Shown here: positions 1-19,310 of the stretch, piece by piece | How positions within the stretch are numbered: position 1 is the first letter of the stretch | Layout: each line of letters opens with the position of its first letter | NCBI GenBank assembly: GCA_003514005.1 | Contig: DOSJ01000004.1 | Coordinates: 101,533-165,532, forward strand | Length of the DNA stretch: 64,000 nucleotides | DNA from: Candidatus Falkowbacteria bacterium | GTDB lineage: Bacteria > Patescibacteriota > Patescibacteriia > Patescibacteriales > UBA12075 | Direction of reading: 5' to 3' | The notes under the pieces: generated by a model | Told to the model about the DNA's origin: nothing | The model's database searches: none | The model's input: the letters and a program-made list of their open reading frames with translations, nothing else | Program-made: the position numbers and the translations under genes

Positions 1-1017
1 TTTGATTGTTTGGACAATACGATCAACTGTTGAATCAAGGTCAAAAGATGTTCGCTCATTCTTACATGTCGTCTTTTGCGGATTATCGTAATTGTCGCAT
101 TGCGGATAGACCAGAGTAAAACTTACTGTCACCAATTCATCATCCTTGATCGTGGAGTAGTCATAAGTAGTGTAAACAGAACCGGCCGCACCCTCGCTAT
201 TTGCTTTGACACAATATGTCCGGTTGTCGACCATCCGCTTTGCAACTCTCTGGGGTAGACTGCTCTCGGCTGGCGTTTCTAAACAATTTAACTGATGATC
301 ATTGTTTGATACAGCAACCTTCGGAGGCCAAGATTGAGTAAAGATATAATCGGTTAATAATCTTTCCGGATACTTAAATGAGATTCCAGTTTGACCGTCA
401 GCACTAAGTTTCCATAGATCATTATTTGCTTCACCCGGGCATTGGGCAAATTCACATCTAGGTCCAGTGCGTCCAACATACGAGCCGTCTGGGCAAAGCT
501 TGGCCTCTTCCGTACAAGCTATTTGCCCAAAATTTGCCGAACTGTTGAGATGCCAAATTGAATAATTAAGATAACCGGCAAAACTTACCCAAAGGATGTA
601 TGGCAAAAGAAGCCACATGGCCGGACGAGAGATTTTCGCAAAAGCAATAATAGTGGCAACAATGGCGAACCAAAGAAAAATCATCTCAAAAAGAGCTCCG
701 CCCGGGCTGTGCAGGCCGAAAAAGATAATTGACCAAAGTGTATTTAAAACCAACTGTCCGATGAAAATGCCGAGGGCTATTTTTACATCCTTGCGATCCA
801 AACCTTTCTTCCAGATCAAGAACGCTGAAATACCCATCAGGACAAACAGTGTTGTCCAGACCGGTCCAAAGACCCATGCCGGAGGATTAAGAGCTGGTTT
901 GACTATATCTGCATACCAGCCGGAAATAGACTGTGTCGTAAACACCGAGCCGATGATACCAGCAAGCTCGGAGACTACGATAGCGATAATGAGTTTAAAT
1001 GTATTGTTTATTTTCAT
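1..1017 (-). CDS. TspO/MBR (tryptophan-rich sensory protein) family membrane protein fused to a C-terminal Cys-containing soluble domain; 3' end runs off the window
   Basis: Own translation of the minus strand from ATG at 1017-1015, open to position 1 (339 codons). It is absent from the ORF track because no stop lies in the window. The first ~155 aa carry TspO hallmarks: WYADIVKPALNPPAWVFGPVWTTLFVLMG, GQLVLNTLWSIIFFG, LPYILWVSFAGYLN. Track ORF 596..1033(+) is its antisense shadow. Confidence 0.8.
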   Translation of the reverse strand, partial: MKINNTFKLIIAIVVSELAGIIGSVFTTQSISGWYADIVKPALNPPAWVFGPVWTTLFVLMGISAFLIWKKGLDRKDVKIALGIFIGQLVLNTLWSIIFFGLHSPGGALFEMIFLWFAIVATIIAFAKISRPAMWLLLPYILWVSFAGYLNYSIWHLNSSANFGQIACTEEAKLCPDGSYVGRTGPRCEFAQCPGEANNDLWKLSADGQTGISFKYPERLLTDYIFTQSWPPKVAVSNNDHQLNCLETPAESSLPQRVAKRMVDNRTYCVKANSEGAAGSVYTTYDYSTIKDDELVTVSFTLVYPQCDNYDNPQKTTCKNERTSFDLDSTVDRIVQTIK

Positions 1018-1019
1018 AT

Positions 1020-1178
1020 TTATTTCCTTTTAGAATCGGCCCAAAGCGACAATATCCCCAAGGCTAAAAAGAGTGCCACCTCTACCCAATTCTGTTTTTG
1101 AAACGCATTGAAAAGCGCTGTTCCAAAAAAGATTATAAATATCGCAAGGCTGGTAAATTTATATTTTTCCATATTCAT
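1020..1178 (-). CDS. small hydrophobic protein (52 aa), hypothetical
   Basis: Own translation: MNMEKYKFTSLAIFIIFFGTALFNAFQKQNWVEVALFLALGILSLWADSKRK. It is below the track size cutoff. It sits 2-3 nt from both neighbouring minus-strand genes and has two predicted TM segments. Confidence 0.35.
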   Translation of the reverse strand: MNMEKYKFTSLAIFIIFFGTALFNAFQKQNWVEVALFLALGILSLWADSKRK

Positions 1179-1181
1179 ATT

Positions 1182-1499
1182 TTAGCGTTTAATTTTATAT
1201 TTGTCTGAAAGTCCCCATTGCCAACGCGGTTTTTCTCCTTTCTTATAGGCGACAACAACCAGAAGGATGGTCAAGACAATGATAGGTAGTGCGAACGTCA
1301 GGATATTGCTTCCCGAATCAGGATTTCCCGGAATGTCCTTTTCTCTGACGAGCACGAGGACTAGGATGAGTACGATATAGAGAAAGATGACGCACCATCC
1401 CTGCCATTTCGCTGGCGTCCAACCCCAGCCGTAAAGCTTGGCTTTAAACCAATATCCCTGCGGATTGTCTTTCAAGTATTTTATGTATTCTTTAATCAT
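1182..1499 (-). CDS. small membrane protein (105 aa), hypothetical
   Basis: Track ORF. It has a W/G-rich N-terminus (GYWFKAKLYGWGWTPAKWQGW) followed by two hydrophobic helices, and overlaps the upstream gene by 4 nt. Confidence 0.55.
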   Translation of the reverse strand: MIKEYIKYLKDNPQGYWFKAKLYGWGWTPAKWQGWCVIFLYIVLILVLVLVREKDIPGNPDSGSNILTFALPIIVLTILLVVVAYKKGEKPRWQWGLSDKYKIKR

Positions 1500-1822
1500 A
1501 AGCTTTTATCTTTGTGCTTTAACAATACTTCGGCCGGGGAGATTCCGCCAAGGACTTTGTGTGGAAAATAGTTCCAAGCATCAGTTACCAATTCAAGAAC
1601 ATTGCTTAATTCCGAAGCGTCTCCGCCACGATCAAACATGGCCACGACTTTCATCATGTCGTCATTATTCTCTTCGTGGAAAATAACGTCTCGGATATGA
1701 TCCAGAGTAAAATCACTCTCGGTTTCTTTGAGCATGTCCACCAGTTCCTGTTCGATCTCATTTCGACGTTCTAAAATTTGTTGTTTTGATTCTATTTCCA
1801 TAAAATTATTTTGCGAATGCAT
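1496..1822 (-). CDS. hypothetical acidic protein (108 aa) with DUF2384-like C-terminal motif
   Basis: Track ORF. The C-terminal TDAWNYFPHKVLGGISPAEVLL resembles the W..P...LGG.SP.ELL motif of Xre/MbcA/ParS-type antitoxin toxin-binding domains (from memory, unverified). Overlaps both neighbours. Confidence 0.5.
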   Translation of the reverse strand: MHSQNNFMEIESKQQILERRNEIEQELVDMLKETESDFTLDHIRDVIFHEENNDDMMKVVAMFDRGGDASELSNVLELVTDAWNYFPHKVLGGISPAEVLLKHKDKSL

Positions 1823-2672
1823 CGGAAAAAATCATCAACTCTTTACCTTTTCGTGATTTATAAGCATTGTAATTCAAAGAAAAATTTACAATTCTACGAT
1901 TTGGATAAAGAGATTTAATTTCTTTTTTATTATCATAGGTTAAAAGCCAGAAAGCGTCTGGATTCTGGTTTAATTTTTTTGCTAAAGCTTCATGGTTATC
2001 TTCTCGGTAGTGGTTAAGATAAAGAGAAGCACCCTTTTCAAAATATGGAGGGTCAAGATAAATAAAAACGTTCTTTTTGCTTAAATATTTATTGATAAGC
2101 TTAAGCCCATCTTCATTAAAGACCGATATTTTATCTTTGTATGCTGATATTTTTTTAATTCTTTCAATAAGGGCTTTCTTGTTAAACCTTGCATCAACTT
2201 TATATTTACCTTTTTGTTCTATCCCACCAATCACTCCTCCGTCCAAAATACCGGAAGTATTTGTTCGATTAAGAAAAAAAGTGGCAAAACCGAGATTAAA
2301 TTCACTCGCTTTCGGATTACTATAAATTTCTTTTTGTTTTTTCCATTCAGCAATTGTCACTGGAGTAGATTCTATTTTTCTAATAAACCTTGCAGAATGA
2401 AAAATAGATGAGTTCCAAAAAGAATAAACAGTTTTATCCAGATCATTGATTACTATTCGTTCAACTTTGCCAGACATTAACAATGCCAAGGCCGCACCAG
2501 CACCACCTGCGAACGGTTCAATGTAAGTAACCTTTTCCAAATGATTATCCTTTATCATGCTATCAAAAAATGGAAATAGAAAAGTCTTTCCACCAGGGTA
2601 TCTTAATGGGCTACAGTGTAATCGTTGGTTTCTTTTTTGTGGTATTTTTTGCATATTAATTTTTTTTGCCAA
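1806..2672 (-). CDS. DNA adenine methyltransferase, Dam/D12 class (N6-adenine)
   Basis: Motifs LRYPGGK, EPFAGGAG (SAM binding) and LDPPYFEKG (DPPY catalytic motif). An alternative start at MQKIPQ (2654) would remove the 17-nt overlap with the upstream gene. Confidence 0.9.
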   Translation of the reverse strand: MAKKINMQKIPQKRNQRLHCSPLRYPGGKTFLFPFFDSMIKDNHLEKVTYIEPFAGGAGAALALLMSGKVERIVINDLDKTVYSFWNSSIFHSARFIRKIESTPVTIAEWKKQKEIYSNPKASEFNLGFATFFLNRTNTSGILDGGVIGGIEQKGKYKVDARFNKKALIERIKKISAYKDKISVFNEDGLKLINKYLSKKNVFIYLDPPYFEKGASLYLNHYREDNHEALAKKLNQNPDAFWLLTYDNKKEIKSLYPNRRIVNFSLNYNAYKSRKGKELMIFSDAFAK

Positions 2673-4020
2673 AATAAAAATCTAATATGTCGGCGACAAT
2701 AAAAGAATCTTTTAAAATATCGGAGCGTTTGCAAACTATGTTTCCATGAGCATATTTATCTAAAATAACACCTAAATTACGTTGGTCTGAAAGCCATTCA
2801 TTGGTAAGCGATACGCCATTTTTGTCCTGTTGAGTTAATTGCTTTTTCGCTTCTTTGAGAAAATCCTCACAAACTTGATCTTGTTTAGCTTTTTTGCCAT
2901 CGCCTCGATTCTCGTAATGGACACGAGCCGCAATTTCAACCAATAATCGAAGTGCCATTCCAAGAAAGGGCAATATAGCATCATTGTTTTGACTTTTTTT
3001 ATCAATATCCACCAGAGCACGGTATAAATCATTTACCTTACCTTGCTGTAAAGAAAGGGTTCGTCCAAAAAGCTCATCGGCTGTTTTAGTGACCGGTGTT
3101 TTGCGAGCGATTTTTAATTTATAATCAGTGGCTATTCCTACTTTTCCAAAAAGATCTGTTTGTTTCTTGCTTTCGGCCTCTGTTATTTCGGTCGATGCCC
3201 GATCGAAGTCTTTATCAGAAATACTTTTTAAATAATCAAGTATTTCTTTGTTATTCAAACGAGAAAATAATTTGCCATTATACTGGCCATTTTTTAACAC
3301 ATCCCAAACAACCACTTTTAACTTTTTTTCAAAATCAGTATCTTTAATTTTCAATTTTTTATTTCCGTCAAAAGAAAAACCAAAAAATTCTTGAGCCGGT
3401 GTTTGCCCGATCAATCTCCAGAAAGTTGTCACATAGCCGGGCCCCAGTACTGATTCTTTTAATTCATTTGCTATTGTAAGACTGTTAATAACCTTTGTTA
3501 TTCCAACCCTTATCAACTCTTTCTCTCCGGCTTTTCCTCGACGTTCCTTGTGATGAGCTATTTCATTAGAGCCCCACGATACCTCATTGTTTTGATTAAG
3601 ATGTTTTCTTTCAATAAAGCGATAGCCTTCTTCCAAGTCCTCGGTTACGAGGCACTCTAATTCAAAATCCCCTGAAAGATTGATTTTTGATTTGATTTTT
3701 GAAAATTTTGTTTCTTGAGTGCCAGCCAGTTTGGGGTCTGCTAACAATTTATATGCGGCGACTCTTCTGTTACCTTCAAGAACAATATTGCGATCATTAA
3801 AACGCCAGACAACGATTTTCTCCAACTGAGGAAGATCAGCATCCTTTTCCATTTCGCTGGCCAATTTTAAAACCTGAAATTTACCAGTTATAAAGTGTTT
3901 TAATAAATCTTCCTCCGTAAGACCAAAATACTGATCAGAAAAACGAGCATTCTCGTCCCAGAGTGAGAGATCTTTAATCGCTATGTCTTTTTTGTTCCAT
4001 TTTGAATTGTGAGTGCTCAT
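2656..4020 (-). CDS. ParB/Srx-fold (ParB N-terminal-like, DndB/DGQHR-related) domain protein, 454 aa
   Basis: The N-terminus has IKDLSLWDENARF (equivalent of the ParB I..L...NPR box) and IVLEGNRRVAAYKLL (GxRR / DGQHR-like box). The remaining ~330 aa have no motif I recognise. Confidence 0.7.
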   Translation of the reverse strand: MSTHNSKWNKKDIAIKDLSLWDENARFSDQYFGLTEEDLLKHFITGKFQVLKLASEMEKDADLPQLEKIVVWRFNDRNIVLEGNRRVAAYKLLADPKLAGTQETKFSKIKSKINLSGDFELECLVTEDLEEGYRFIERKHLNQNNEVSWGSNEIAHHKERRGKAGEKELIRVGITKVINSLTIANELKESVLGPGYVTTFWRLIGQTPAQEFFGFSFDGNKKLKIKDTDFEKKLKVVVWDVLKNGQYNGKLFSRLNNKEILDYLKSISDKDFDRASTEITEAESKKQTDLFGKVGIATDYKLKIARKTPVTKTADELFGRTLSLQQGKVNDLYRALVDIDKKSQNNDAILPFLGMALRLLVEIAARVHYENRGDGKKAKQDQVCEDFLKEAKKQLTQQDKNGVSLTNEWLSDQRNLGVILDKYAHGNIVCKRSDILKDSFIVADILDFYFGKKN

Positions 4021-4053
4021 ATTATTTCTATTATAATTTTATCAAATTTTGGG

Positions 4054-7000
4054 CTATTTTTCTCCGCTCCAGTCCTTACACAAAACCTCGGCTTGTTCCA
4101 ATACTGTTTTGGTTGCCAATTCCTGCTTGTCTGGGGGATATTTATATTTGTTTAATAACTTCTTAACCAAGACGCGAAGCTTGGCCTGTACGCTTTGTTT
4201 GAGCGTCCAATCAATAGAAGTATTTTTGCGAAGCATAACCACCAGCTCTTGAGCAATCTTTTTTAAAATATCATCGCCAAGTTCCATAATCGCACTATCA
4301 TTAGCACAAAGAGCATCGTAAAATGCTACTTCGTCTTCAGTGAGATTAAGATTTCCTCCGCGATTCTTTTCCTCGCGAATCTTTTTTGCCAACTCAACTA
4401 ATTCAGCAATAACTTGAGCGGCCTCAATTGTCTGGTTTTGATATTTCTTGATTGTCTCCTCAAGCATCTTGGCGAACGATCGTGACTTAACCAAAAACTT
4501 CTTTTCCATCGTACGAATCTCGTCATTCAAAAGACGTTTCAAAACTTCCAAAGCCACATTCTTGCGTTCCAAGCCCTGAACTTCCTGCAAGAATTCATCA
4601 GACAAGACAGCAACATTCGGATTTTTCAATCCAGCTGCGTCAAAAATATTTATAACCTTATCCGAAGTCACAGCGTCGGAAACAATCTGCCGGATAGCTT
4701 GATCGTAATCTTCCATTGTCGGTCCACCAAGACCACCAGTCTGTTCAAATTTAGCGATGAAAGCCCGGACAGTTTGGAAAAAGGCTACTTCGTCACGAAT
4801 ATGTAAGGCCTCACTGCTTGGCACCGACAGAGCAAAGGCCTGCGACAATTCAGCAACGCTCTGCAAATATCGTTTCTTGCCGTTTTCCATTCCCAAAATA
4901 TGATCCATGGCCTTGCCGGCAATTTCTGCCTTATCTCGAGCTTTGTCAGAAAAATATCCAGAATAATCAAAGCCATGATACATCGCCTTAACCGTCTCAT
5001 ATTTTTCAAGCATGATACTAATCGCATCCTCTTGCTTAACGGTCGGTGCTTCTTTACCTTCTTGTGTGTAATAAGAAAGAGCTTCCTTGAGCGACGGTGC
5101 GATGCCAAGATAGTCAACAATAAGTCCGCCCGGTTTATCTTTATAAACTCTGTTCACACGAGCGATTGCCTGCATCAATCCGTGACCTTGCATCGGCTTA
5201 TCAATATACATCGTGTGCATTGACGGAGCGTCAAAGCCGGTTAGCCACATATCACGAACAATAACGAGTTTGAGTTCGTCCTTTGGATCTTTCATACGAT
5301 CAGCCAACAAATCTCGTTCTTCTTTGGTATGAATATGCTTCTGATAATTTGCTGGGTCGCCAGCCGATCCAGTCATCACCACTTTTATAAAACCTTTTTT
5401 AATATCATCGCTATGCCACTGTGGTCGTAATTTTATTATCTCGTCATAAAGTTCAACGGCAATTCTGCGACTCATAGATACAAACATACCTTTGCCGTCC
5501 ATAACGCCAAGGCGAGCCTCAAAATGTTCAACAACATCTTTGGCAATCAAAGCAACTCTTTTCTCCGAACCGATCATAGCCTCAAGGCGAGCCCACTTAC
5601 TCTTGAGTTTCTCTTTCTTCTCCACTTCTTCGCCCTCAGTCAATTCTTCAAATTCGGCATCAATCTTTGGTGTTATTTCTTTGAGCAAATCGATCTTGGC
5701 CAGTCGGGCTTCATAATAAATCGGCACGGTCGCTTTATCCTCTACGGCTCGAGTAATATCATACACATCAATATATTCACCGAAAACTGCTCGGGTATTT
5801 TTGTCTGACAACTCAATTGGCGTACCAGTAAAGCCAATAAACGAAGCGTTGGGCAAGGCATCGTGCATATGGCGAGCAAAACCGTCTATAAAATCATATT
5901 GGCTACGATGAGCCTCATCGGCAATCACGATAATATTTTTACGGTCCGAAAGAAGTGGATGTTTGTCGCCCTTAATCTCTGGCATAAACTTTTGAATAGT
6001 GGTAAATACCACACCACCGGAAGCGACCGAAAGAAGCTTTTTGAGATCAGACCTATCTTGAGCTTGCTTGGGAGTCTGTCGGATCAAATCACTGCAATGA
6101 GAGAATACCCCAAACAATTGGCCATCCAAGTCATTGCGATCAGTAAGTAAAACTAGAGTTGGATTATCCAAAGCCTGAATGATTTTGCCAGCATAGAAAA
6201 CCATAGACAAAGATTTGCCAGAACCTTGCGTGTGCCAAACAACGCCGGCACGTCTATCACCATTGGCAGATGACGCTTCGGCTGTTTTTTCAACGGCTTT
6301 ATTAACTGCAAAATATTGGTGATATGCTGACAGCTTTTTGATTGTCTTGCTGACATTATTTTTAGAATCCTTTTCGCTCTCAAAGACAATAAAGTTTTTG
6401 ACGATATCCAGCAGTCGCTCTTTAGCGAAAACTCCCTTGATCAGAATTTCCAAGTCGTTAGTTTTAACAATCTTTTTGCCATCAACACTTTTCCAACCAA
6501 CAAAGCGATCCATATCAGCCGAGATCGTGCCAACAACGGCACTCTTTACATGATCCGCCAAAACGCAAATCTCGTTATAGGCAAACAAAGATGGAATCTC
6601 GGCTTTATATGTTTGGATCTGATTAAATGCACTTTTAAGTGTGGCGTTGGCATCGGCCGGGTTCTTTAACTCAAAAATAGCAATCGGCAAACCGTTCACA
6701 AAAATCATCACATCTGGTCGGCGATTATGATTATTCTCAACGACAGTGAATTGATTGACTGCCAACCAGTCGTTATTATTCAAATTCTTAACATCAAAAA
6801 GGTACACCTTGTCACCAGCGATCGTGCCATCCTCTCGAGCATATTCAACATCGGTGCCTTCAGTCAGCATTTTATGAAAGGCTTGATTGGCAGTTAAAAG
6901 GTTAGGGTTGGAGTAAGCGACATTAACCGCTTTTTTGATTGCTTCCTCTTGAGCGTCTCTAGGAATATTGGAATTTATTTGAGCGACAGCACTACGCAAA

Positions 7001-7158
7001 CGATCAACCAAAACGACATCCTTGTACGATTGGCGTTCTGGATGTTCACCATCAAAAGCAATATCCGGTCCAAAGGCAACGGAATATCCAAGGTCTTCCT
7101 CAAACCATTCAAGGATTGCTTCTTCTAAATCTGATTCAATGTATTTGTAGTGCTTCAT
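4054..7158 (-). CDS. hsdR: type I restriction enzyme R subunit (helicase/endonuclease)
   Basis: 1034 aa. SF2 motor motifs [11 protein letters not shown] (motif I) and [10 protein letters not shown] (DEAH), an N-terminal nuclease-type region ([16 protein letters not shown]), and an operon with hsdM/hsdS. Confidence 0.95.
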
Positions 7159-8753
7159 ATTGTTTTATTAAAAATACAATCAAGTAATTCCTTATAAACC
7201 GTTGTTGCTGGGACAATCTGCTTTGATAGTAATAACTTAAAATCATTTTGATTAATGCCGGTAGTTATACCGCACAAAGACATTAATTCTCCTGTAGCAC
7301 TCTTAACATCTCCATTCTGAATATCTGTAATTTTTGTAGTATATTGTTCGCTGGTCACAGCAGGATATTGTTTTGACACAATTTCAAAATCAAATAGATA
7401 ATTCTCAATTTCTTTTCTTTTCAACATTCTATTCATTGTTGGATTTGCGGCAACAAAATCTTCTCTTTGTTGATCTGTAGTTGATGTTCCATCGGCATTG
7501 ATATCTTTATCTTTAAGTAGACAAAGCTCGACATCCTTAAACGCCTTATTAAGAACCTTAAGAGCAATAGCGGAGTATTTATCAGGTTCTGTGTTTCCAC
7601 CACTTGATATAAAAAGAGTATCCGGTTCACTTTCTTCAAAGATTTTATTGTAAACCTGAGCATCTATTCCGGCCTCTGCACCATTACCACTAGCTTCTTT
7701 TTTACCCTCACAATAGATAATCTTTTTGGGGGCTACTAAACCAGTTAAATCTTCTAACGCTGTTTGAAAAATTTTTTGCCAATTATTTCTACTCTTAACA
7801 ATAGGTGTTAAAGTTTTTGGTTCAGATGCGTAATCACCGTCAAACGCTATCACGGAACATTTATCATTCAAGTTTTCTTTCAAGGCAGTCAGAAATCCTA
7901 TACTGTGAGTTGCGACCCAAAGTTGGCAATTATCTGGTATAATTTTTTCAATTTCAATAAGTAAATTTTTCTGGATGCCAGTGTTTAAATGTAATTCTGG
8001 CTCATCAATGATATATACAGTGTCATCAAATTCTTTACGTTTGAGATACAAATCCAATAGAATATCCACAACCTCCTTCTCGCCGGACGATAAAACATTA
8101 AATTCAAACTCTTTCGGCTGGCTTGGTTTCTTAAAATATAAAGAACCCTTGCCAGATAGAATGTCACCCTCATCTGATATCTCTAAACCAAGACATTTTT
8201 TTAATATTTCGTTTAACTCACCTATAATTTGAGTTTTTGCTTGCTTATCCGTAAGATCGTTAGATTTTCTGTAATCGGTGATATAGATATACAACCTTTG
8301 ATAGTTATTGGTCATTTTATCATCGAGATCAATCGAGGAACTAGCACCAATATTATTCATCTTTATATCGGGAATTCTCTGCAAACTAGTTACATTAAGA
8401 TTTGAATTGTAGCGATATGGATTTCGGTAATTAAAGATTGTATTTTGTTTTCCCGTTGCTTGCTTAGCCGATCTTGTTGTAGAAAAATTACCACTATCAA
8501 AAGTGATTTCAATATTTTGGTGATTATAGTTTGCAACACCCTCCATTGAATGAAACTTGAAGTCCTTTTGCCCAAATTGACCAACGGCTTCGTGTGCGTT
8601 ATTTAAATAGAGCATCCCATCAAATACACTGCTTTTGCCACAGCCATTCGGTCCAACCAAGGCAATTATTTTTGAAGGTGTTTCTCCAAGATCAATAGTA
8701 AGATCTTTAAATCTTTTGTAGCCATTTTTGAATTGTATCTTTTTAATTTTCAT
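7155..8753 (-). CDS. ABC/SMC-type ATPase fused to Toprim/DUF4435-like domain (OLD / GajA / fused PARIS AriA-AriB-like)
   Basis: Walker [10 protein letters not shown], signature-like LSSGEKE, Walker [11 protein letters not shown] and ATHS. The C-terminal third has IIYCEGKKE (Toprim Glu), LLKDKDIN (DxD) and [10 protein letters not shown] (EIENYL box typical of DUF4435/OLD). Its stop overlaps the hsdR start by 4 nt. Confidence 0.8.
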
Positions 8754-16327: not shown

Positions 16328-18025
16328 ATGGAACATGCATTAATTTACTGCCGAGTCTCAACCGAGGAACAGGCCGAGGACGGCCACCACTCCCTTGCGA
16401 CCCAGCTCAAGCTCTGCAAACGAGCGATCGAGGAAAGTAACAAATTCAAACTGATAGATGACGGTGTTTTTGAAGACCCCGGACGATCAGCCACCAACAT
16501 GAACCGCCCCGGACTGCAAGACATGCTACTTAAAATCCAAGACGACAAAACAATCAGAGCAGTATTTATTCAAGACACTGACCGACTTGCCAGAAACGCT
16601 CTTGATCACATGCAGATCAAGGCGATTATGAAAAAGCATGATGTTGAACTTTTTTCTGTCTCCCAGCCGGGCATTACCGATAGCCCCGAGGGAAACTTTA
16701 TGGACTTGGTGATTGCCGGTGTGAACCAACTCCAATCCCAAATCACTTCCAGAAAAACTCTAAAAAGTCTTGAGCAGAAATTCTGGGAGGGTTGGTGGCC
16801 GACCGGTGTGGCTGTCGGATATTTAAATGCTGGCGAACCAGACGATGAGAAAAAGAGAATTATTATCGTAGACGAGGAACGAGCCCCACTTATTCAAGAA
16901 GCCTTTAAAATGTATGTGACCGGAGATTATTCGGTCTTTGAAGTTCGCGATGCTTTATACAAAAAAGGTTTTAGAACTCACGCCGATAAACGGCTCGCTC
17001 ACAGCAAGATGATTGAGATATTAAAAAATCCTTTTTACTACGGCGAGATGAGGTGGCGAGGATTAGTTAACACCGGAAAACATAAACCGCTTATAGATAA
17101 AGATTTATGGGAACGAGTCCAACTAGTTATGGCCGAACACAATAGATATGCCTGTCGACGGCAAAAATTCAATTTCATTCTGCGAGGCCTGACCTTTTGT
17201 GCCAACTGCGGTCAAAGATACACCGCCGAACATCATCCTAAGAAAAACAAATCTTATTACCATTGCAACCGATCTGGCGATCAGATTAAATGCCAAGATA
17301 AGTATGTGGAAGTTTGGGATATAGAACAGCAAGTTGCCAACTTGTTCAAGTACATAGAATTCACTCCCAATTTTACCGACAGACTGGTGACCAAGATTGA
17401 AAAGATTTACAGCGGTCGCAAAGAAGTGATTAATAAAGATAAGAAAGCCCTGAATACTCAAAAGATGATGTTTGAAAAGAAACGGGATACAGCCGAGGAA
17501 AAACTTTTTGCCGGATTAATCACTGATGACGACTTCTCCAGAGTAAAAGTTAAAATCAAAGAACAGCTCGAGCTATTGCAAGACGAATTGTATGCCCAAG
17601 ATAAAAAACTCAATATGAGAATCGATGAACTGCAAGATATGCTCTTATTCGTCCGCAATGCTTACGAAGCCTATACCAAATCACCGGATGAAATGAAAAG
17701 ACTATTCCTTGGCCTTTACTGGGAGAGATTTGAAGTAGCCAACAAAAAAATCCAAACCGTAATACCGTCACCGATCATAAGGGGGCTGATGCAAGCCGAG
17801 GACATGGTCTTTACCAAGAAATACAAAGAAATTACCGGTCCGAGAATAATAACCGACTTGGCCGTAGAATTTACACCATTCATAGCCGGCAAATCAAAAT
17901 CCAAGATTGCCCCTAAAACGCAAAAATCCCGACAAATTGCCGAGATTCCTGCAATGATATCCAATCAACCAAACTCGGTTATATTAGATACCGTTTGGGG
18001 TGAGGTACGGGAATCGAACCCGTAA
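16328..18025 (+). CDS. large serine recombinase (integrase)
   Basis: N-terminal resolvase catalytic domain ALIYCRVSTEEQ and DRLARN, recombinase domain, Zn-ribbon CANCGQRYTAEHH...YYHCN...C, and coiled-coil. The last ~10 codons are antisense to tRNA-His. Confidence 0.9.
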   Translation: MEHALIYCRVSTEEQAEDGHHSLATQLKLCKRAIEESNKFKLIDDGVFEDPGRSATNMNRPGLQDMLLKIQDDKTIRAVFIQDTDRLARNALDHMQIKAIMKKHDVELFSVSQPGITDSPEGNFMDLVIAGVNQLQSQITSRKTLKSLEQKFWEGWWPTGVAVGYLNAGEPDDEKKRIIIVDEERAPLIQEAFKMYVTGDYSVFEVRDALYKKGFRTHADKRLAHSKMIEILKNPFYYGEMRWRGLVNTGKHKPLIDKDLWERVQLVMAEHNRYACRRQKFNFILRGLTFCANCGQRYTAEHHPKKNKSYYHCNRSGDQIKCQDKYVEVWDIEQQVANLFKYIEFTPNFTDRLVTKIEKIYSGRKEVINKDKKALNTQKMMFEKKRDTAEEKLFAGLITDDDFSRVKVKIKEQLELLQDELYAQDKKLNMRIDELQDMLLFVRNAYEAYTKSPDEMKRLFLGLYWERFEVANKKIQTVIPSPIIRGLMQAEDMVFTKKYKEITGPRIITDLAVEFTPFIAGKSKSKIAPKTQKSRQIAEIPAMISNQPNSVILDTVWGEVRESNP

Positions 18026-18071
18026 CAGGAGCGCCACAAGCTCATGTGATAACCGTTTCACCAACCTCACC
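17996..18071 (-). tRNA. tRNA-His (GTG), intact, with encoded G-1 and CCA
   Basis: Hand-folded: G-1 + GTGAGGT / TG / GTGA-AACGGTTA-TCAC / A / TGAGC-TTGTGGC-GCTCC / TGTT / ACGGG-TTCGATT-CCCGT / ACCTCAC / C / CCA. Confidence 0.9.
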
Positions 18072-19235: not shown

Positions 19236-19236
19236 G

Positions 19237-19310
19237 TGTACCCGACAGGGTTCGAACCTGTGACCTACAGCTTAGAAGGCTGTCGCTCTATCCAGCTGAG
19301 CTACGGGTAC
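19237..19310 (-). tRNA. tRNA-Arg (TCT)
   Basis: Hand-folded: GTACCCG / TA / GCTC-AGCTGGATA-GAGC / G / ACAGC-CTTCTAA-GCTGT / AGGTC / ACAGG-TTCGAAC-CCTGT / CGGGTAC / A. Confidence 0.9.

Follow-up and report, generated by a model that had tools for sequence, protein, structure and literature searches.

The window analysed here is a stretch of 64,000 nucleotides (nt) from Candidatus Falkowbacteria bacterium (GenBank assembly GCA_003514005.1, contig DOSJ01000004.1, positions 101,533 to 165,532 of the forward strand), and the subject is a pair of genes that follows the hsdR gene of its type I restriction-modification (R-M) locus. The minus strand carries every gene from about 1.2 to 13.5 kb of the window. 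The first gene of the pair encodes a predicted ParB-like protein of 454 amino acids (aa), in the following called component A, and the second one a D12-class DNA methylase, component B. Judged by its profile matches, the gene pair is a copy of PD-lambda-5, a defence family already validated in E. coli, and it constitutes an independent module of the PD-lambda-5 type at the 3' end of the type I R-M operon. The pair and its parts are located as follows.

4021-4053, minus strand: spacer of 33 nt from the hsdR stop to the A start (sequence).
2656-4020 including the stop, minus strand: PD-lambda-5 component A, 454 aa (open reading frame (ORF), PADLOC PD-Lambda-5_A, AlphaFold2 (AF2) model).
3685-3996, minus strand: predicted ParB/Srx-type N-terminal domain of A, residues ~9-112 (Foldseek, conservation; LWDENARF and EGNRR).
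3763-3777, minus strand: arginine-patch motif E82-G83-N84-R85-R86 of A, the putative counterpart of ParB GERR.
3121-3663, minus strand: middle region of A, residues ~120-300, a part resembling a helix-turn-helix (HTH) domain followed by a small alpha/beta part (Foldseek, AF2, conservation, hhalign register).
3055-3120, minus strand: linker of A, residues ~301-322 (predicted local distance difference test score (pLDDT) <50 at 301-314; lowest conservation in the alignment).
2659-3054, minus strand: C-terminal helical bundle of A, residues ~323-454 (separate AF2 model).
2652-2672, minus strand: A/B junction, with the TAA of A at 2658-2656, 1 nt, and the methylase ATG at 2654-2652; alternative TTG at 2672.
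1806-2654 including the stop, minus strand: PD-lambda-5 component B, 282-aa D12-class methylase (PADLOC PD-Lambda-5_B, PF02086).
2043-2054, minus strand: DPPY catalytic motif (motif IV) of B (sequence; at least 90% conserved in 65 homologues).

Component A starts with the ATG at 4020 and ends with the TAA at 2658-2656. A preliminary description of this DNA had placed A 33 nt behind hsdR on the same strand, and the coordinates confirm this distance; a promoter and terminator scan revealed no minus-strand terminator anywhere in 1000-4600, the spacer included. The two methylase starts that had been proposed, one overlapping A and one abutting it, are both present. The longest ORF (2672-1806, 288 aa) begins with TTG and overlaps A by 17 nt; from the ATG at 2654, 1 nt past the A stop, the protein would have 282 aa. 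Of the two starts, the ATG is the more probable one, since the alignment of the methylase homologues begins at residue 5-7 of the long form and the 282-aa form is used in public gene calls. All motifs named earlier were found again: A contains WDENARF (residues 21-27) and LEGNRRVAAYKLL (81-93), and the methylase contains SPLRYPGGK with its LRYPGGK core, EPFAGGAG and DPPY. Component A has 341 homologues, the closest with 91% identity (E=1e-274), and the identical A protein is present on at least 24 public metagenome contigs. Both A and B are genuine genes.

The family was identified with PADLOC models. Component A matches 24 PD-Lambda-5_A models, and all 24 families listed are A-models; no further PADLOC family was matched at E up to 0.1, hence no restriction-endonuclease model. 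For the best one (PDLC04013, E=2e-29), residues 10-437 of 454 align with profile positions 5-423 of 440, and the PD-Lambda-5_A models of ~500 positions align to component A over part of their length only. Component B matches PD-Lambda-5_B (PDLC04018) at full length with E=1e-113, and also the PADLOC model MTase_II (E=6e-89). Pfam and NCBIfam hidden Markov models yielded no assignment in the 454-aa protein, ParBc included, and HMMER searches of A, 30 aligned homologues and 10 distant members against Pfam, NCBIfam and PDB sequences returned no meaningful family.

PD-lambda-5 originates from a functional selection with E. coli ECOR7, was listed as 'ParB/HEPN, methyltransferase', and was validated in E. 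coli as a two-gene, broad anti-phage system (Vassallo 2022, PMC9519451). Protection was strongest against T-even phages, cloning required an MG1655 strain deleted for the mrr-containing region, and HHpred assigned ParBc to residues 6-89 of the prototype A with 96.4% probability and DUF4145 with only 35.6% (PMC9519451). Our literature search found no mechanistic PD-lambda-5 study beyond this discovery paper, the later papers being survey listings. The window pair shares with the prototype the order of a ParB-like protein followed by a D12-class methylase, and the C-terminal bundle of A also occurs in proteobacterial phage-borne members; one of these, a Vibrio phage homologue labelled PD-Lambda-5_A by its depositors, has both the N-terminal region and the C-terminal domain in common with component A. 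It differs in the length of A (454 aa compared to about 500 aa) and in its location in a type I R-M island instead of an E. coli prophage. Furthermore, its nearest relatives are Patescibacteria/Saccharibacteria metagenome-assembled genomes. With regards to the preliminary description, the idea of a separate methylation-linked module beside the type I system was borne out by the family matches of A and B and by their linkage, but the module cannot be called uncharacterised, as its family is a validated one.

The linkage of the two genes was followed by a genome scan with the 30-homologue alignment, which resulted in 80 loci from Patescibacteria/Saccharibacteria, Bacteroidota, Gammaproteobacteria, Ignavibacteria, Verrucomicrobia and several archaeal lineages, among others. 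The co-occurrence analysis proposed earlier turned out positive: 71 of the 80 loci have a methylase homologue downstream of A, on the same strand, and in 68 of these 71 it is directly adjacent. In 61 of the 64 pairs with two intact ORFs, the spacing from the A stop to the B start is between -56 and +98 nt. Its mode is -4 nt and therefore indicates translational coupling of A and B. The pairwise identity matrices of both components correlate as well (r=0.44, Mantel p=0.001). As far as these sequence comparisons indicate, A and B largely co-travel, but not perfectly.

Nine loci gave no methylase match (L014, L065, L075, L079, L046, L073, L029, L081 and L082). Three of them (L014, L065, L075) stop at the A match, and L079 is a fragment of 28 residues only. 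A is truncated at an inserted transposase-like ORF in L046, where no methylase was found; in L073 the match to A is only partial, and the methylase-like ORF close to it is an unrelated one. L081 and L082 are the window's own contigs, which were added later by exact sequence, and their methylase is present. The only intact A (474 aa) with no methylase within 4 kb is that of L029. Decayed copies occur too: A is frameshifted or disrupted next to an intact methylase in L066, and both genes are frameshifted in L037. In L052, the methylase (7455-8291) is 74-75% identical to the window copy, but A (6001-7059) only 32-38%, and hsdR and hsdS lie directly upstream as they do in the window. This locus indicates that A and B are exchangeable modules.

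In three of the 64 pairs, a gene for an OLD-like ATPase-Toprim protein of ~518 aa is located between A and B (L022, 7400-8956; L032, 7371-8948; L069, 7388-8941), matching the PADLOC model ATPase-Toprim_I-B with E=4e-20. This three-gene PD-lambda-5 variant (A, ATPase-Toprim, B) was seen in two gammaproteobacterial loci and one Flavobacteriia locus. The plasmid collection contained no homologue of A, and the phage collection gave three partial A matches only. Pseudomonas phage OQ658368.1 carries an A-like gene at 2992-4386 (plus strand), annotated as a hypothetical protein, together with an unannotated methylase homologue at 4424-5227 (minus strand; 46% identity, E=4e-71), so that the order is convergent and not tandem.

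The AF2 model of component A, built with 30 homologues, reached a mean pLDDT of 82.8. In a Foldseek search against the PDB, its top 16 matches were nucleotide-bound or C-terminally truncated ParB-family structures, including M. xanthus ParB with cytidine diphosphate (7bnk, E=2e-3, probability 1.0), B. subtilis ParB (6sdk), Noc (7ng0) and KorB (8qa8). These alignments span 210-290 columns and comprise the ParB N-domain and the helical DNA-binding domain behind it. Common matches in a viral structure library were ParB/Srx proteins (down to E=2e-6), 'ParB-like nuclease' entries and proteins with a GmrSD N-domain. According to the model, the ParB likeness of A is that of an N-domain plus an HTH-like domain over about 270 aligned columns. 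The ParB/Srx assignment made from the sequence earlier is thereby supported by structure prediction, together with the published HHpred result for the E. coli homologue, but its limit to the first ~100 aa is not. Likewise, the ~330-aa C-terminal part, which had been regarded as an unknown effector or sensor, resolves into the HTH-like and alpha/beta middle, a disordered linker and a helical bundle of 137 aa.

Conservation follows the same division. The strongest stretches of A are L-x-L-W-D-E-N-x-R-F (18-27) and E-G-N-R-R-x-x-x-Y-K-L (82-92), with W21, N24, R26, F27 and E82-R86 invariant in the 30 homologues; the EGNRR motif is also at least 90% conserved in 65 loci. Further stretches are R-K-H...N...W...E...R (138-160) and G193/T198/R202 in the middle region, where R138, K139, H140, N144, W149, E153, R160, G193, T198 and R202 are invariant. 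An hhalign comparison set IVLEGNRRVAAYKLL of A on the IVAGERRFRAAKLA box of B. subtilis Spo0J; since the overall probability was very low (0.4%) and box I was ambiguous, only the GNRR/GERR register was used. In this register, the arginine patch of the ParB nucleotide pocket appears to be retained in A (GNRR on GERR), and the GERR Glu of ParB is an invariant Asn in the A family. The corresponding mutation in M. xanthus ParB, E93A (PDB 7o0n), serves to block the hydrolysis of cytidine triphosphate (CTP).

The preliminary description had connected A with the DndB/DGQHR branch, which is not what was found. EGNRR aligns with GERR, and the best structures are the CTP-binding proteins ParB, Noc and KorB. 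Pfam gave no match to DndB or DUF262 (PF14072, PF03235) for the window A at E up to 0.1 or for the 30 homologues at E up to 1, and the PADLOC output for A contains no DndB, GmrSD or BrxU model. GmrSD, BrxU, SspE and PD-T4-2A use a ParB/Srx-fold N-domain as the nucleotide-binding module of a defence protein, too. In these systems, a DUF262 ParB-like NTPase is fused or paired with an HNH or HEPN effector; A has neither DGQQR/DGQHR nor a DUF262, DUF1524 or HNH match and matches no Pfam family. They target modified DNA and lack a methylase, whereas the window system has its own. Compared to the CTP clamps ParB, Noc and KorB, A is alike in its N-domain and helical DNA-binding domain, for which they are the best structural matches, and in the conserved GxRR arginine patch. 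In contrast to them, it has Asn for the GERR Glu, does not keep box III, lacks a ParA partner, has another domain in place of the C-terminal dimerisation domain, and is encoded next to a methylase.

When modelled alone, the C-terminal bundle reached a pLDDT of 90 and a predicted template modelling score of 0.87 (AF2). Foldseek against the PDB gave no significant match for it (best E=1.2); four HEPN chains are among the weak matches, namely 8xeh_D, 2q00_B (template modelling scores 0.56/0.62), 7ae8_A and 7bxo_D. Conserved residues of the bundle are N330, Y333, G354, R358 (with E362), N401, Y423, H425 and F450, of which N330, Y333, R358, N401, H425 and F450 are invariant; R358, N401 and H425 sit on different helices. 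The pattern R358-x3-E362 resembles the first-helix motif of DUF4145. A DUF4145 match was obtained for one of the 30 A homologues, and it is weak (E=0.027); HMMER detected no HEPN family in 40 A-family members. Searching 1.84 billion cluster representatives with a bundle profile yielded 261 proteins, in nearly all of which the bundle is C-terminal in a protein of 410-520 aa. Because nearly all profile matches share this architecture, the bundle is specific to the A family, and no bridge to another family was found among the 261 matches. It also occurs in the Vibrio phage protein mentioned above and in the Pseudomonas phage homologue. Based on these models, a HEPN label for the bundle is plausible, although weakly supported and unproven, and the bundle could equally be a dimerisation module that replaces the ParB C-domain.

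Component B is an alpha-group D12-class enzyme, in which motif I (EPFAGGAG) precedes DPPY (PF02086, E=4e-19). The term 'Dam-class' used previously is appropriate at the level of the D12 fold, but not in the sense of Dam: with 55 bits, B remains far below the cut-off of 114.85 bits of the Dam model TIGR00571, and neither Dam nor T4 Dam nor DpnM was among the PDB sequences matched by phmmer (E up to 0.01). The PDB has a single sequence relative of B, M.CbeI from Caldicellulosiruptor bescii (7m6b, E=2e-18, residues 16-276), an alpha-class N4-cytosine methyltransferase according to its depositors (PMC8616854). Both enzymes have LRYPGGK and DPPY; however, the aligned region of B is only distantly similar, and M.CbeI belongs to a type II R-M system with a conventional restriction enzyme as partner. 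Judged by the TIGR00571 score and by its nearest solved relative, B is not an orthologue of Dam. Since that relative is an N4-cytosine methylase, GATC should not be assumed as the target, and B may modify either N6 of adenine or N4 of cytosine.

Across 65 family members, B is evenly conserved, sharing 43-50% identity with the window copy. The even conservation extends to residues 121-165, located between motif I and DPPY, which may be taken as the DNA-recognition region by analogy with Dam. Component A diverges much more than B across the family (17-57% identity). The pattern seen in B suggests a methylase specificity that is shared by the family rather than a diversifying one. For the prototype, the need for a cloning host without the mrr region implies that the methylase is active on host DNA; about the mark itself, this requirement says no more than that E. 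coli fails to tolerate it. Palindrome counts in the 64-kb window were uninformative for a target guess, as a mild depletion was seen for GATC and GGCC and likewise for most other palindromic 4-mers.

Taken together, we favour an R-M-like arrangement, in which B would mark the cell's own DNA and the ParB-fold protein A would be sensor and restriction component, and assign it a probability of roughly 0.55. B would methylate a fixed short motif on host DNA, at N6-adenine or N4-cytosine. A would bind DNA via its ParB-like HTH region, and its ParB N-domain with the GNRR arginine patch would serve as a nucleotide-gated switch or as a nickase. It would act on DNA without the mark, self-protection being the role of B, and the C-terminal bundle would either dimerise A or provide a second, HEPN-like output of the RNase type. 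The decay pattern, with A disrupted while the methylase is intact in L066, was counted for an R-M-like function.

Several observations weigh against this arrangement. The GERR Glu required for CTP hydrolysis in ParB is an invariant Asn in A, so that nucleotide use is uncertain, box III of ParB (ENLQR) is not conserved in the hhalign register, and no catalytic nuclease motif was identified in A. The bundle has neither an Rx4-6H motif nor a significant structural match. The lone intact A of L029 and the mismatched identities of L052 indicate that the pairing is not absolute, and an intact A with no methylase within 4 kb also counts against strict toxicity of A. Finally, the prototype protects best against T-even phages, whose glucosylated hydroxymethylcytosine DNA resists most classical restriction (PMC9519451), and because of this resistance a plain sequence-specific R-M system is not an easy account.

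The discovery authors of PD-lambda-5 suggested a hybrid of R-M and abortive infection (Abi), where a minimal R-M system would be made up of the methylase and the ParB part of A. The HEPN-like domain at the C-terminus would be a latent RNase, and failure or inhibition of restriction would unleash it to kill the cell or to arrest translation, much as PrrC is guarded by EcoprrI. This hybrid is not mutually exclusive with the R-M-like arrangement preferred here, and we consider it possible, though well short of an even chance. The HEPN chains that recur among the weak Foldseek matches, the single DUF4145 match among the 30 homologues and the R358-x3-E362 pattern speak for it, as do the authors' DUF4145 hit in HHpred and the broad protection including T-even phages, which fits an Abi-type output. 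Against it stand the missing Rx4-6H motif, with the invariant R358, N401 and H425 on separate helices, the best Foldseek E-value of 1.2, the absence of any HEPN family by HMMER in 40 members, and the fact that the bundle could merely stand in for the ParB dimerisation domain. With the type I-linked HEPN anticodon nucleases PrrC-EcoprrI and RloC, the concept of R-M with an Abi back-up is shared, and the window copy adjoins a type I system; however, there is no sequence or significant fold similarity, the canonical HEPN catalytic residues are absent in A, and PD-lambda-5 has its own methylase and usually lies away from type I genes. A more speculative version, which we hold to be rather doubtful, is that A is a ParB-type nucleotide-gated clamp working as an immune sensor, which would load on DNA, read the mark of B and, on unmarked DNA, switch on a non-canonical (R/N/H) HEPN-like C-terminal effector. 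If true, this would be a compact R-M and Abi machine without a classical nuclease fold, would explain the protection against phages with hypermodified DNA, and would be the first case of ParB-style clamping for self/non-self discrimination.

An ordinary type II R-M system, with A as an unconventional restriction endonuclease cognate to B, would agree with the MTase_II match of B, with its relationship to M.CbeI of a classical type II system, and with the gene coupling typical of R-M pairs; nicking by ParB/Srx-family proteins is on record for Osa and RK2 ParB (cited in PMC12839542). Nevertheless, A has no restriction-endonuclease model in PADLOC, its predicted fold combines an HTH with a ParB N-domain whose arginine patch is clamp-like, and we know of no characterised type II enzyme with this fold. 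As B is evenly conserved and A divergent, unlike in type II pairs with diversifying specificity, and as the prototype protects against T-even phages, this explanation is unlikely. ParB-methylase fusions are frequent in phages and plasmids, and no nuclease motif was identified in A, so A might instead be a non-effector, a ParB-like loader or regulator of the methylase comparable to DpdB and DndB within an epigenetic or anti-restriction module. In the Dpd and Dnd systems, ParB-like ATPases indeed have such an assisting or regulatory role in DNA modification (PMC12839542). However, the two-gene E. coli system is sufficient for defence in the mrr-deleted host, so that one of the proteins must be the effector, and the invariant polar residues of A in three separate regions suggest more than a loader; we regard this possibility as highly improbable. 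Lastly, A could be a routine partition ParB paralogue that stands beside an orphan methylase by chance. Its N-domain and HTH-like region do resemble ParB, Noc and KorB, but A has no Pfam ParBc or HTH match, carries GNRR instead of GERR and a family-specific C-terminal bundle instead of the ParB dimerisation domain, matches defence-system models, and has a same-strand methylase downstream in 71 of the loci (80 in total, from several phyla). In addition, it is surrounded in the window by genes of the type I R-M system, by the methylase and by small ORFs without family match. The linkage and family data effectively refute this explanation.

For annotation, the result is that a 'hypothetical protein plus orphan Dam' becomes a recognised defence system. 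What is new is one more member of PD-lambda-5, a family known and validated, and nothing found at the locus is surprising enough to alter current views. Experiments on PD-lambda-5 are nevertheless sharpened by four points: the ParB likeness of A includes the HTH-like domain, the GERR Glu is an invariant Asn, the C-terminal bundle is family-specific and has no HEPN signature, and the methylase is nearer to an N4-cytosine enzyme than to Dam.

The neighbouring features in the window are the following.

11832-10270, minus strand: hsdM.
10267-9932, minus strand: membrane-protein-like ORF of 111 aa between hsdM and hsdS (only a weak, sub-threshold Pfam match).
9928-8759, minus strand: hsdS.
8753-7155, minus strand: ABC-type ATPase of 532 aa between hsdS and hsdR (Pfam AAA_21, SMC_N, AAA_15).
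7158-4054, minus strand: hsdR (PADLOC REase_I, E=0; Pfam HSDR_N/ResIII/T1RH-like_C in public gene calls).
1822/1801-1496, minus strand: small ORF of 101-108 aa (no family match).
1499-1182, minus strand: membrane ORF of 105 aa.
17996-18070, minus strand: tRNA-His.
19236-19310: tRNA-Arg.

The preliminary description had the pair stacked on the type I system, and this stands as co-location but not as coupling. Homologues of the window's type I genes occur within 6 kb in only about 8 of the 80 loci, and they are missing at this distance from L001, L002 and L003, the three closest relatives (80-83% identity). Functional coupling of the pair to the type I system as a conserved feature is rejected on these counts. 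Because type I genes are near in only about 8 loci, the PD-lambda-5 module is independent of them, and by this genome comparison its position after hsdR is a matter of island co-location.

The 532-aa ATPase (7155-8753) overlaps hsdR by 4 nt, and its best PADLOC match is AriAB, the fused PARIS protein (E=8e-34); the C-terminal 233 aa have no Pfam match. In the prr type I locus, prrC has the corresponding position. The type I operon of the window may therefore contain a built-in back-up of the anti-anti-restriction kind. Upstream of hsdM, the segment 11836-13466 (minus strand) contains a 61-aa DUF7695 ORF and a 477-aa AAA_14/DUF4143 ATPase, which matches the PADLOC candidate system PDC-S01 (E=3e-32) and is probably another component of the defence island. 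The region is a defence island with at least three components, namely the type I R-M system with its PARIS/OLD-like ATPase, PD-lambda-5 and the PDC-S01-type ATPase. A serine recombinase of 565 aa (Resolvase, Recombinase and Zn_ribbon_recom) is encoded on the plus strand in the region 16328-18070 and ends inside tRNA-His. This recombinase/tRNA-His arrangement near 16-18 kb looks like the boundary of an integrated island with the defence genes.

Downstream of the methylase, the 101-aa ORF (1496-1801, minus strand) has counterparts in two loci only. The one in L002 (8216-8509; 67% identity) directly follows the methylase, and the one in L071 (9978-10277; 60% identity) lies 1.8 kb downstream of it. 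A role as third component is not supported, as the ORF directly follows the methylase in one other locus only and has no family match. The first part of the window (1-1017, minus strand) has a higher GC content and belongs to a TspO/MBR-family gene (342 aa), of which the window, at its start, includes just the 3' part; this gene was seen only because identical metagenome contigs (L081 and L082) have public gene calls.

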